Shown: positions 8,441 to 59,605 of the stretch, piece after piece
Layout of the letters: each line of letters opens with the position of its first letter
How positions within the stretch are numbered: the stretch's first letter is position 1
NCBI GenBank assembly: GCA_964525935.1
Contig: CAZGJZ010000007.1
Coordinates: 43,336-107,335 of the forward strand
Direction: 5' to 3'
Source: an uncultured Opitutaceae bacterium
GTDB taxonomy: Bacteria > Verrucomicrobiota > Verrucomicrobiia > Opitutales > Opitutaceae
DNA length: 64,000 nucleotides
Program-made: the position numbers and the translations under genes
Notes under the pieces: generated by a model
Database searches by the model: none
Told to the model about the DNA's origin: nothing
The model's input: the letters and a program-made list of their open reading frames with translations, nothing else

Positions 8441-8516
8441 TGGAGCCGAGCATCGGATTTGAACCGACGACCCACGCTTTACGAAAGCGTTGCTCTACCA
8501 ACTGAGCTAGCTCGGC
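8441..8516 (-). tRNA. tRNA-Thr (anticodon CGU), CCA encoded
   Basis: Reverse complement folds as a cloverleaf. Acceptor GCCGAGC/GCTCGGC; D arm GCTC-AGTTGGTA-GAGC; anticodon stem ACGCT/AGCGT with loop TTCGTAA; T arm GTCGG-TTCAAAT-CCGAT; then T-CCA. Confidence 0.9.
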
Positions 8517-23959: not shown

Positions 23960-24412
23960 TCACCCGCGCGCCTTCAGTGCTTTCTTCGGCACGCGTTGCA
24001 CTTTCACAAATTTTGCGCGGAAGAGATCATCCAGCGTCTCGCGCACGCCGGGCGTGAGGCGTTTCACGAGCTCATCTAGCGACGGCAACGGAGCGCTGGC
24101 GTCGGGCGTTTCCTCCGTGGCCGTGGCTTCAGCAGCGGCCGGCGCCGGCACTTCGCCACGTGCCTTCGCCTCGCTCAGAAACGCCGTCTCCGCCGCCTCG
24201 TCCGGCCACAGGGGCGGCATATCGTCCTGCAATGGCACCGCATCTGACGCAGCGGCCATCTCATCGGCGCCGGTTTCGGCGTCCGCAGCATTGCTTTTGG
24301 CATTTCCGCCCGCGGCAGCTGGCGCTCTGGCGGCCTGCGCCCGAGGCTCCACACTGATCTGCGGCAGCGCGACCTGTAGCCGCGCTTCCAACCGGTCAAT
24401 CAGGCCTTTTTT
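23960..24412 (-). CDS. dnaX: -1 frame C-terminal extension of DnaX (putative tau-specific region, 148 aa after the shift)
   Basis: The -1 frame is open from the slippery heptamer (..[15 protein letters not shown]..) to the stop at 23960. It has no ATG or recognisable RBS of its own; the ORF-track M at 24391 is a TTG. An Ala/Pro/Glu-rich linker is followed by a conserved-looking tail, [27 protein letters not shown]. Confidence 0.6.
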
Positions 24413-25551
24413 TTTTCGCTGTCGCCGCCGGCGGGGGCTTCGTCAGCGAGCGCGGTCAGTTCGCGGATGAGGCTGTCGATCGCGCGGGCGCGGCTGGCTT
24501 CGACGGCCTTGAGCAGCGTCACTTCAAAATTGATCTTCTCGGAAAGACCGAGCTTCACGCTGCCTTCGCCTTCGCGCAGGCCGTCGAGCAAGCGCGTGAG
24601 TTGCTCCGTCGTCAGCGCCACGCCGCCGAGCGTGTCGCTGCGGCCGCCCTTGGCGATGGCATCGAGCAACGCGAGGCGGACGAGTGCCTGCAAATCCGAT
24701 AGCAGGCGCACGAGGTCGCGGCCGTTGGCATCGCACTCATCGACAATGGCGACGATCTTTTGGTGATCGCCCGTGCCAAGCGCGGCACCGAGCGCGGCGA
24801 TTTTCTCCTCCGACACAAGACCGTAGACGTCGAGCACGTCAGGCTCGGCGATGTCGGTGCCGCAGAAGGAAATCATCTGATCGAGGATCGACTGCGCATC
24901 ACGCATGCCGCCGTCGGCCATGCGCGCGATGCACGCGAGCGCGGCGTCGGAAATTTTGACCTTCTCGGCCTTGGCGATCTTGCCGAGGTGCGCAGCGATG
25001 AGTGTCGGGGAAATCGGCTTGAGGTCGAAGCGCTGGCAGCGCGATACGATCGTCGGCAGCACTTTCTGCGGATCGGTGGTCGCAAAGACGAACTTCACGT
25101 GCGCCGGCGGCTCCTCGAGCGTCTTGAGCAGCGCGTTGAACGCCGCGGGCGAAAGCATGTGCACTTCGTCGATGATGTAGACCTTGTATTGGCCCTGTGC
25201 CGGCGCGTATTGCACGGTGTCACGCAGGTCGCGCACCTGGTCCACGCCGTTGTTCGAGGCACCGTCGATCTCGATCACGTCGAGGTGCGAGCCCTCCGCA
25301 ATGGAAACGCACGCCGGATCCTTCACGTCGAAATCGGCCTTGGGCCCGCCGGTGCAGTTCAGCGCCTTGGCGAAGAGGCGGGCGAGCGAGGTTTTACCCG
25401 TGCCGCGCGGTCCGACGAAAAGATAGGCGTGTGCGATGCGGCCGCGGGTGATCGCGTTTTTCAGGGTGCGCACCACGTGATCCTGCCCTACGACATCATC
25501 GAAGGTCTGCGAACGCCACTTGCGGGCGATGACTTGGTAGGTGGAGGACAA
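24400..25551 (-). CDS. dnaX: DNA polymerase III subunit gamma/tau, zero-frame product (383 aa, gamma-like)
   Basis: ORF-track 24400..25800. A TTG at 25551 gives [26 protein letters not shown], which aligns with canonical DnaX N-termini. Walker [10 protein letters not shown]; Zn module CTGG...C; DEVHML; SRC motif (IVSRCQRF). The frame ends ..SEKKKA-stop right after the A10 run. Confidence 0.9.
24406..24416 (-). promoter_or_regulatory. A10 run containing the A-AAA-AAG slippery heptamer (candidate -1 ribosomal frameshift / transcriptional slippage site)
   Basis: Minus strand reads agc gaa aaa aaa aag gcc tga. Heptamer A AAA AAG = 24412..24406. A GC hairpin agcgcg-N9-cgcgct lies about 17 nt downstream. 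Confidence 0.6.
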
Positions 25552-25559
25552 GGGTGAAC

Positions 25560-25632
25560 GTTGAAAGGTGAAAGTTGAAAGACAGCCAGCGCGAAGTTTC
25601 GATCTTTCAACTTTCAACCACCGGCTTTCAAC
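25560..25632. repeat. word-built palindromic element (GTTGAAAG words) in the dnaX 5' leader
   Basis: Left arm gttgaaaggtgaaagttgaaaga; right arm tctttcaactttcaaccaccggctttcaac. Ends 9 nt from the dnaX TTG. Confidence 0.65.
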
Positions 25633-25634
25633 CG

Positions 25635-25675
25635 CCACTTTGTTTTGCCGCGCGGTGCGCGGCAAAACAAAGTGG
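25635..25675. other. perfect 19-bp hairpin between SRP RNA and dnaX
   Basis: ccactttgttttgccgcgc-ggt-gcgcggcaaaacaaagtgg. No U-tract follows on either strand. Confidence 0.7.
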
Positions 25676-25769
25676 CCAGGCACTCCACGGCACTGGGAGA
25701 ACGTCGTTGCCGTTGCTACCTTCCGGTCCTGGCGGAGTTCACGCGCCTGCCCATGCATGGCACCTGGCC
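25674..25769 (-). ncRNA. ffs: signal recognition particle RNA (small/4.5S type); ends approximate
   Basis: Minus strand contains GUGAACUCCGCCAGGACCGGAAGGUAGCAACGGCAACGACG. This matches the conserved helix-8 core (CAGGxCC-GGAA-GGxAGCA) with compensatory changes relative to E. coli 4.5S. Closing helix GGCCAGG/CCUGGCC. The ffs-dnaX gene order is conserved in many bacteria. Confidence 0.7.
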
Positions 25770-57835: not shown

Positions 57836-59605
57836 TCAGAACAGAAAATACCGCTGCGCCATCGGCAGCACCTTCGCCGGCTCGCAGGTCAGGTGCACGC
57901 CATCGGCGGTGACTTTATAAGTCTCGGGATCGACTTGGATCCGGGGCATAGCGTCGTTGAGCACCATGTCGGCCTTACCGATCTTACGACAGGACTTCAC
58001 CGGCTCGAGCCGGCGCGCGAGGCCGAGTTGCTTCGGGCCGTTTTTGCTGCGGAGCGAAGCGGCGCTGACAAAGGTAATGCTGGTCGACGTGAGCGCCTTG
58101 CCGGCGGCGCCAAACTGCGGACGGTAAAAGGTCGGCTGCGGTGTGGGGATCGAGGCGTTCGGATCACCCATGTTGGCCCACGCAATGAAGCCGCCTTTCA
58201 AAACGGTCTCTGGTTTTACGCCGAAGAGCGCAGGCTTGAAAATGACGAGGTCGGCGAGCTTGCCGACTTCGATTGAGCCCACGATGTGCGAGATGCCATG
58301 CGCGATGGCGGGGTTGATCGTGTATTTGGCGAGATAGCGCAGGCAACGAAAGTTGTCGGCGGCGGGATGCGACTGGTGCGTCATCGCTCCGATCTGGAGC
58401 TTCATTTTGTGAGCTGTCTGCCACGTGCGGATGATGACTTCGCCGATGCGGCCCATGGCCTGTGAGTCAGACGACATCATCGAGATGGCGCCGAGATCAT
58501 GGAGCCGATCCTCGGCCGCGATGGTCTCGGGGCGGATGCGGGACTCCGCGAAGGCTACATCCTCGGGAATCTTCGAATCGAGATGGTGGCAGACCATGAG
58601 CATGTCGAGATGCTCGTCGATGGTGTTAACCGTAAAGGGACGCGTCGGATTGGTGGACGACGGCAGGACATTGGCTTCGCCGCAAACGCGGATGATGTCG
58701 GGCGCATGCCCGCCACCGGCGCCCTCGGAGTGAAAAGTGTGAATCGTGCGACCTTTGAAGGCGCGGATCGTGTCGTCCACATAGCCGGACTCATTGAGCG
58801 TGTCGGTGTGGATCGCCACCTGCACGTCGAGCTCATCGGCCACGCCGAGACAGGTGTCGATCGCGGCGGGGGTTGTGCCCCAGTCCTCGTGCAGTTTGAG
58901 GCCGATGGCCCCGGCGAGGATTTGTTCGCGCAGCGGCGCTGCGGTGCCGCAGTTGCCCTTCCCGAGGAAGCCGAGGTTCATCGGATAGGCCTCCGCCGCT
59001 TCGAGCATGCGATGCAGGTTCCAGGCGCCGGGCGTGCACGTCGTGGCAAACGTGCCGTGCGCCGGCCCGGTGCCGCCGCCGAGCATCGTGGTAATGCCGG
59101 CGCTGATCGCCTCGTCGATCTGCTGCGGACAGATGAAATGGATATGGGTGTCGATGCCGCCGGCGGTGATGATGTTGCCCTCGCCCGCGATCACCTCCGT
59201 GGCGGCGCCCACGATCATCGGGTTTTTCTTCTTCGTGCGCGGATCCACGAAGATCGAGCCGATGCCTGATTGGATGCCGGGATTACCCGCGTGGCCGATG
59301 CCGACAATCAGCCCGTGCTTGATGCCGATGTCGGCCTTGATGACGCCAAGGATGGGATCGAGGATGAGCGCGTTGGTGATGACGAGATCGAGGGCATCCT
59401 TGTCGAGCGCGGTCGGCGACTGGCCCATGCCGTCGCGGATGACCTTGCCGCCACCGAACTTGATCTCATTGCCGTAACCGCCGCCCTCGGCGATGAGGTC
59501 GCGCTCGACCTGCACGAAAAGCTCGGTGTCAGCGAGCCGCACGCGGTCGCCCACAGTGGGCCCGAACATCTCGGCGTATTGGCGGCGGGAAAGCTTCAGC
59601 GGCAT
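57836..59605 (-). CDS. ureC: urease subunit alpha
   Basis: 589 aa. [46 protein letters not shown] and similar motifs. Confidence 0.95.

Follow-up and report, generated by a model that had tools for sequence, protein, structure and literature searches.

A reversed dnaX gene conserved across Opitutaceae, with an adenine run as the probable site of slippage towards a tau-like subunit

We analysed the dnaX gene in a 64,000-nucleotide stretch of DNA from an uncultured Opitutaceae bacterium (contig CAZGJZ010000007.1, positions 43,336 to 107,335; hereafter the window, in whose own numbering all window coordinates are given). Comparison with related loci supports a layout that is the reverse of those in Escherichia coli and Thermus: the zero frame would give a short, gamma-like product, and a one-base recoding event on a run of adenines would give the long, tau-like one. 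That recoding of some kind is required to make tau is very probable, and we favour transcriptional slippage as its main route, at a probability of about 0.6, with ribosomal -1 frameshifting possibly contributing. Tau ties polymerase cores to the clamp loader and is required for that coupling. In a whole bacterial family, this subunit appears to be made only by way of a programmed “error”.

Layout of the split gene and its conservation

At the junction of the two frames, the minus strand reads ...GGC GAC AGC GAA AAA AAA AAG GCC TGA. The zero-frame open reading frame (ORF; 24400..25551, minus strand, as are all dnaX features below) runs from a TTG start at 25549-25551 to a TGA at 24400-24402 and encodes a gamma-like product of 383 amino acids (41.0 kDa) that comprises clamp-loader domains I-III. 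This part of the protein matches the Pfam families DNA_pol3_delta2 (7.6e-45), DNAX_ATPase_lid and DNA_pol3_gamma3 and the NCBIfam models NF004046 (449.9 bits, cut-off 400) and TIGR02397 (415.6 bits, cut-off 250), and it is modelled by AlphaFold2 (AF2) with a predicted local distance difference test score (pLDDT) of ~90 across residues 20-370. The run of ten adenines (A10), read directly from the window at 24407..24416, is the proposed slippage or shift site. It is the sole homopolymer of at least 8 bases in the window, which is 63% GC and in which 0.04 A10 runs would be expected by chance. With the base that follows it, the end of the run forms the heptamer A_AAA_AAG (24406..24412) in the phase of the zero frame, identical to the slippery sequence of E. 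coli dnaX.

The zero-frame TGA (24400..24402) lies one codon past the heptamer and sits inside what the tau frame reads as CTG-ATT (Leu-Ile). The +1 frame is closed by a second TGA at 24396..24398, which arises where GA follows ATT, a rare Ile codon. From G24406 onwards the -1 frame is open for 148 codons, up to a stop at 23960-23962; this putative tau-specific C-terminal extension (23960..24406), which we call the tail, brings the conceptual fusion to 530 amino acids and 56.3 kDa. An earlier note on this DNA, made from the letters alone, had reported a zero-frame stop one codon past a 10-A run holding A AAA AAG, a 383-residue product and a -1 frame open for 148 codons down to 23960, and direct reading gives the same. 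Its assignment of the zero-frame part to the clamp-loader ATPase domains is confirmed by the Pfam matches and by the NCBIfam ones above their cut-offs, and its proposal that the short product is encoded in the zero frame and the tau-like C-terminus in the -1 frame, so that the long form needs recoding, is upheld by the comparative analysis that follows.

Two sets of relatives were assembled. A protein search with the conceptual fusion gave the 120 closest protein clusters (69-92% identity; sources NCBI, ENA, JGI and Logan), 112 of which terminate as KKK-X-stop. The second set, made up of 80 metagenome loci found by the tail peptide alone, the window and three species genomes, yielded 67 distinct junction sequences. 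The run is A10 in 58 of these, A9 in eight and A11 in one, and never shorter; all three Opitutaceae species genomes carry A10 at the same position. In 66 of the 67 junctions, an A10 or A9 is followed by G, one or two codons and TGA. The zero-frame stop of these split-type junctions lies one codon past AAG in 64 and two codons past it in the other two, and all 66 hold A_AAA_AAG in phase. The base after the run is G in every one of the 67, though the residue encoded there in the tau frame may be G, D or A. The A-run and the split frames are thus kept in related dnaX loci, which the earlier note had proposed to check.

The A10 is also present in large assemblies: in the 7.18 Mb chromosome of Horticoccus and an independent Logan reassembly of the same chromosome, in a contig of 8.86 Mb (coverage of ~90x, to judge from the record name), and in a scaffold of 1.86 Mb. 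The Horticoccus chromosome, the 8.86 Mb contig and the 1.86 Mb scaffold share the synteny of the window, namely an ECF sigma factor gene, two small ORFs, ffs, dnaX and the tail, followed on the opposite strand by GGACT and PP2C genes. One protein cluster (P0013) was read on 22 contigs. Among the close homologues returned by the protein search, there was no paralogous full-length dnaX.

Some assemblies depart from the common pattern. The only contiguous clusters are P0001, P0002, P0004 and the partial P0067, each a singleton from a single contig that reads as an A11 call would. Two metagenome contigs carry A11 and a contiguous dnaX (L165:2651-2661 and L105:2328-2338). L165 retains the CTGA context and so represents a simple gain of one A; in L105 the junction is altered (KKKDRMGALE, with CTGA absent), and it may be a genuine variant with tau in the zero frame instead of an error. 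Of the clusters P0086, P0111, P0008 and P0038, some end in EKKRTD or EKKMD, and P0038 (417 amino acids) reads on in the +1 frame. In some assemblies, this would point to bases substituted within the run or to variants of its length.

The tail encoded in the -1 frame

Searches with tblastn recovered conserved tails in the 80 metagenome loci at 37-69% identity. We examined the coding signal in a 34-codon conserved block of the tail, represented by 65 distinct DNAs. Read in the -1 frame, the three codon positions have entropies of 0.64, 0.48 and 1.29, so that variation falls mostly on the third position, and this is the case in that frame only. The -1 frame has 24320 synonymous and 23006 nonsynonymous codon differences, versus 4515 and 42255 or 3096 and 42963 in the others. 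The third-position variation and the near-equal counts, both confined to one frame, indicate that the -1 frame is the one in which the tail is translated.

The tail comprises three conserved blocks joined by linkers that differ in length and sequence, and its total length ranges from 102 to 160 amino acids across loci. The first block (24377..24406) begins exactly at the junction and contains GLIDRLE, with L6, E7, R9 and L10 invariant; the middle block reads WPDE..E.AFLSEA..RGE; and the C-terminal block (23984..24088) contains LDDLFRAKF at 24008-24034, with L125, D127, L128, F129, R130, A131 and F133 invariant. In the AF2 model of the fusion, computed from an alignment with the conceptual fusion as its first row, mean pLDDT is 76 and domains I-III are confident. 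Helices are predicted over the three tail blocks (residues 378-395, 452-464 and 492-511), the first of them crossing the junction; the C-terminal helices at 492-497 and 501-511 have pLDDT of 76-80, and the linkers, at ~30, are predicted to be disordered. In five loci (L092, L104, L108, L113 and L114) the linker of the tail consists of short tandem DNA repeats, such as ggtaaagcggaaagcggagagcggaga, caaatcccaaacgccagaacccaaacgcca and ggccagaggtcagaggccagaggcca, and linkers may grow by repeat expansion.

We call the tail tau-like because of its position, its fusion to domains I-III in relatives and its architecture, and not because of domain homology. Neither the tail nor its profile matches any entry in Pfam, NCBIfam or the PDB, known tau domains IV and V included, and an hhalign comparison with the C-termini of single-ORF DnaX proteins of Verrucomicrobia gave a weak alignment of 18 columns at a probability of 13%; both results speak against the identification. 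A hidden Markov model search of the tail against L004, a contiguous Opitutales dnaX, gave E = 0.011 within a set of 14 sequences. The earlier description of a DnaX-like C-terminus with a linker and a conserved helical tail thus holds for the conserved blocks and the predicted helices and finds no counterpart in known tau domains. The tau-like protein presumably tethers the polymerase core, and its tail may bind polymerase or helicase.

If the tail were a separate protein, it would need a translation start of its own or termination-reinitiation at the C-UGA overlap, with a CUG, an AUU or the nearby UUG as the start codon. The CUGA overlap does have the geometry of AUGA stop-start overlaps, gene callers do call an orphan ORF here, and the window has a TTG in the -1 frame five codons past the junction (24389-24391). 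This TTG has no Shine-Dalgarno (SD) sequence and is not conserved. No ATG, GTG or TTG occurs within the first 40 tail codons in 26 of 66 loci, and the positions of such codons vary elsewhere, so no start is conserved; a scan of the window found no promoter-like or terminator-like sites near the junction on the minus strand. The earlier statement that the -1 frame lacks an ATG or an obvious ribosome-binding site accordingly stands, with the TTG as an addition. Peptide conservation starts at the first codon past the run, same-order relatives fuse the tail to domains I-III contiguously, and an independently translated tail would leave an invariant run of at least nine A's unexplained and, by what is established of tau, would be unable to do its tethering when detached. 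Independent translation of 23960..24391, which the earlier note had named as grounds for rejecting its proposal, is therefore not supported, and we consider a separate protein highly improbable. An error of sequencing or assembly, with a true A11 (or A8) and one uninterrupted dnaX ORF, seems to us slightly less probable still. Sequencing is error-prone at homopolymers, and the four contiguous clusters and the two contiguous A11 loci are what such an error would predict of correct assemblies; these contiguous clusters are, however, singletons on single contigs, set against a split in 112 of 120 clusters and 66 of 67 junctions that come from independent projects and technologies and include chromosome-scale assemblies. 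In an uninterrupted ORF, moreover, there would be no use for two conserved TGAs, one in frame and one derived from ATT, or for a spacing conserved at exactly one codon. Among these close relatives, the single uninterrupted ORF that the earlier note thought could undo its case is found in those few clusters and the two A11 loci. Least probable of all is that the A10 is the “off” or degenerate allele of a phase-variable tract or a decaying gene, with tau supplied by A11 subpopulations or dispensable. Replication slippage does mutate homopolymers and rare A11 assemblies are known, but A10 is the overwhelming consensus throughout the family, the tail is under purifying selection, the close homologues show no full-length paralogue, and an “off” majority state is implausible for a subunit needed to couple polymerase and clamp loader. 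Even taken together, these three explanations have only a small chance of being right.

Transcriptional slippage and ribosomal frameshifting as routes to tau

Under standard decoding, translation would end one codon past the A10 and release the 41 kDa gamma-like subunit. Stuttering of RNA polymerase on the T10 template would create a mixed population of mRNAs, in which transcripts with one extra A (or with a change of -2 or +4) would have the tail in frame and those with 10, 9 or 12 A's would lead to immediate termination at the TGAs of both other frames. The 56 kDa tau-like protein, with the same N-terminus followed by a flexible linker and the conserved helical C-terminus, would be made only after the move to the -1 frame at the run, and ribosomal -1 shifting on the embedded A_AAA_AAG may add to it. 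The earlier note had treated ribosomal frameshifting and slippage as equally workable. Both routes do yield the identical fusion protein, but the evidence does not place them on an equal footing and leans towards slippage.

Two signatures at the junction bear on this choice. All 58 A10 loci have GAA ahead of the Lys codons, against a background of 26%, and in 66 of 66 loci the Lys codons begin with AAA, against 25.5%. Loci of the A9 clade have TCA or TTA in place of GAA; TCA accounts for just 5% of Ser codons. Since these run-extending codons are invariant though they are minority codons, selection appears to act on a run of at least nine A's, beyond the seven nucleotides of the heptamer. The other signature is the pattern G NN CTG ATT GA that follows the run and closes the zero frame and the +1 frame with a TGA each. 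At this position ATT accounts for 43 of 55 Ile codons, compared with 11.9% in the same genes, and in 57 of 66 loci either this rare codon or CTT-GA brings the +1 frame to a stop within six codons. Such a double stop favours slippage, because it is unneeded for a pure -1 ribosomal shift and needed where mRNAs with 9, 10, 11 and 12 A's coexist. Bacterial runs of nine A's or T's slip efficiently, and Thermus dnaX exploits such a run (PMC5009743, PMC1088944).

The run is also kept in relatives that encode tau in the other frame. In the Opitutales locus L167 (2.29 Mb contig; run at 1729-1737), an A9-G stands in a gene with tau in the zero frame, and the other frames stop zero and one codons away; L166 (1730-1739) and L004 (4124-4133) have A10-C, again with tau in the zero frame. 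All three runs lie at the same domain III/linker boundary with at least one other frame closed within 0-3 codons, and in L167 and L166 both non-tau frames stop within 0-6 codons. Coraliomargarita sinensis (L168) has A10-G CCC TAG, with tau in the -1 frame. KKK or KKN occurs at the gamma/tau boundary of 22 of 34 contiguous Opitutales proteins. Judging from these loci, the Thermus-type and the inverted orientations coexist within one order. We tentatively raise the idea, which we think rather doubtful at present, that across Opitutales the A9-A10 run has been kept while single-base changes flipped the tau frame between 0 and -1, slippage then supplying an essential subunit either way. If this were true, tau synthesis in Opitutaceae would depend wholly on the infidelity of RNA polymerase, perhaps assisted by a hairpin in the nascent RNA before the run.

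Slippage is thus favoured by the run-extending codons, the double stop, the retention of the run whichever frame encodes tau, and the absence of stimulators of the E. coli type. With regard to the last of these, the window does have a GC hairpin downstream of the site, which the earlier note had placed about 17 nucleotides away. The hairpin is real (24366..24386; 9 bp, loop of 3, -13.4 kcal/mol), but it begins 19 nucleotides past the heptamer, too far for a classic -1 stimulator, and it is not conserved in related loci, where RNAalifold found no downstream consensus structure in four alignment slices. Hairpins at a spacing of 5-11 nucleotides are not enriched either (67% of loci versus 56% of controls). 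We therefore rejected it as a stimulator of programmed ribosomal frameshifting, and it is probably incidental. An upstream SD-like stimulator was rejected as well, since 30% of loci and 19% of control windows have GGAG or GAGG cores, at no conserved position, and the Rfam DnaX element (RF00382) has no match in the window even at E up to 10.

These negatives bear directly on the possibility that the main route is a programmed -1 ribosomal frameshift, in which the mRNA would be a uniform A10 and some ribosomes would slip back one base on the two Lys codons and enter the tail, an E. coli-like mechanism with the opposite outcome. The in-phase heptamer of all split-type junctions and the G that follows the run across three tau-frame amino acids are what such a mechanism would call for, and Atkins et al. 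2016 treat reversed dnaX under ribosomal frameshifting, with Chlorobium phaeobacteroides, which has only 7 A's, as a candidate (PMC5009743). It would do without a conserved stem-loop 5-9 nucleotides downstream, an enriched SD-like core or any resemblance to the Rfam element, and it would not account for the three or four invariant A's beyond the heptamer, for the closure of the +1 frame by a rare codon, superfluous in pure -1 shifting, or for the A10 followed by C in relatives. AAG accounts for 74.5% of Lys codons here, a preference that may reflect a tRNA-Lys(CUU), and such a tRNA would make the site less shifty. On balance, we hold ribosomal frameshifting as the main route to be possible and on the unlikely side.

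Several points nonetheless weigh against transcriptional slippage as the main route. The presence of the heptamer in phase everywhere, together with the invariant G, would be compatible with a ribosomal contribution and even with ribosomal dominance, and the bare A_AAA_AAG gives ~14-16% -1 shifting in E. coli systems that have no stimulators (10.1101/2025.10.02.679949). A long AAA run could aid slipping by ribosomes too, in which case conservation of run length would not be exclusive to slippage by the polymerase. Binomial p-values overstate independence, because the loci are phylogenetically related. Both the mechanism and its efficiency are deduced from the comparison of loci.

A possible stimulator of slippage lies on the other side of the run. 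An RNA hairpin CGCUG...CAGCG (24417..24448, -14.5 kcal/mol) ends at the base preceding the A-run, and stems of -10 kcal/mol or below ending within 2 nucleotides of the run occur in 58% of loci versus 36% of control positions, with stem shapes that differ. Given this modest enrichment, we regard a nascent-RNA stimulator of slippage as possible and as a lead only. It resembles the hairpin-stimulated slippage of a Roseiflexus insertion sequence (IS) element (PMC5009743), although the only motif for which such stimulation has been demonstrated to date is a heteropolymeric one from an IS element.

Known systems, annotation and genomic neighbourhood

The window dnaX is a further case of a dnaX type published in 2013. 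Antonov et al. 2013 (NAR 41:6514, PMC3711429) described two-ORF dnaX genes that need recoding for tau. Their 17 genes come from 12 genera and have the -1 shift in the DNA itself; nine have A10, including that of Coraliomargarita akajimensis (order Opitutales) and those of Chlorobi and Bacteroidetes (several of each). The authors aligned these sites with the A9 site of Thermus and proposed transcriptional realignment, and Atkins et al. 2016 restate this reversed type in review (PMC5009743). The “inverted” logic inferred in the earlier note is therefore correct, and the layout had already been published. The Opitutaceae genes share with the Antonov set domains I-III in ORF1, a run of A's (7-10) near its end that precedes a G and, within one or two codons, a zero-frame stop, a conserved C-terminal extension in the -1 frame, and absence from RefSeq annotation. 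They differ in that Opitutaceae are not among the species of Figure S3 of that study, and here the trait extends across more than 100 protein clusters of the family, carries the signature of a double stop and rare codons, and occurs in both orientations within one order. Beyond PMC3711429 and PMC5009743, our literature search found no experimental follow-up on reversed dnaX and no report specific to Opitutaceae. What the present comparison would add is the family-wide documentation, the run-extending-codon and double-stop signatures, the two orientations in one order, and the negative result for E. coli-type stimulators.

Thermus thermophilus dnaX (Larsen et al. 2000, in the account given by PMC1088944 and PMC5009743) resembles the present gene in its A-run, G and nearby TGA at the gamma/tau boundary, in having stops near in both non-tau frames, and in giving two products from one gene; heterogeneous mRNA is described there, according to these citing papers, and is proposed here. 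In the same account the run is A9, tau is in the zero frame and slippage makes gamma, whereas here the zero frame makes gamma and one additional A would be needed for tau. The E. coli dnaX cassette (RF00382) has the identical in-phase A_AAA_AAG, one frame that ends one codon past the site, and a gamma/tau pair, but its outcome is reversed, and the Opitutaceae loci have neither a conserved counterpart of its SD-like element ~10 nucleotides upstream nor a conserved stem-loop 6 nucleotides downstream and go unmatched by the Rfam model. A further known case is mxiE of Shigella flexneri, where, as cited in PMC1088944, two overlapping ORFs are fused by one non-templated base at a homopolymer and slippage is required for the long, functional product; unlike dnaX, mxiE is an unrelated transcription activator that regulates virulence, and not an essential replication gene.

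RefSeq names only the 384-residue product (e.g. WP_414662047.1), and the programmed shift is unannotated in Opitutaceae. The tail is called as an orphan ORF of 112-133 amino acids with arbitrary starts and no Pfam match (L161:3182-3583, L163:3227-3589, L164:3173-3562). Under current annotation, Opitutaceae genomes therefore seem to lack tau, and tools that polish homopolymers may “correct” the site. Besides this correction of the annotation, the value of the finding lies in a natural experimental series that spans the order, from A10-G with tau in the -1 frame to A9-G or A10-C with tau in the zero frame. The series could serve to learn how the gamma:tau ratio depends on slippage efficiency and to tell the transcriptional from the ribosomal parts, a question that for the reversed dnaX type dates from 2013. 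For recoding specialists the interest is limited, since the class is known.

The gene directly upstream of dnaX is ffs, for the small signal recognition particle RNA (25671..25769, minus strand; Rfam RF00169, 64.3 bits against a gathering score of 40), and the ffs-dnaX synteny is conserved. A perfect 20-bp inverted repeat with a 3-nucleotide loop (GCCACTTTGTTTTGCCGCGC / GCGCGGCAAAACAAAGTGGC) at 25634-25676 overlaps the 3' end of ffs and may be a processing or termination hairpin for it. The dnaX leader (25552-25633) is made of arrayed GTTGAAAG / CTTTCAAC units, which form a long, imperfect hairpin reaching the start codon; together with the ffs hairpin region it folds at -64.5 kcal/mol. The leader in Horticoccus (L161) has a similar array, and other relatives have different short tandem repeats (GATTTTCG-like).

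Two further features of the window lie away from dnaX. A match to the Rfam model 5_ureB_sRNA (RF02514, 95.9 bits against a gathering score of 40) at 59110-59441 on the plus strand probably marks a urease gene and not an sRNA, as this model overlaps the urease ureB coding sequence in Helicobacter. The sole tRNA gene in the window is that for tRNA-Thr(CGU), at 8441-8516 on the minus strand.

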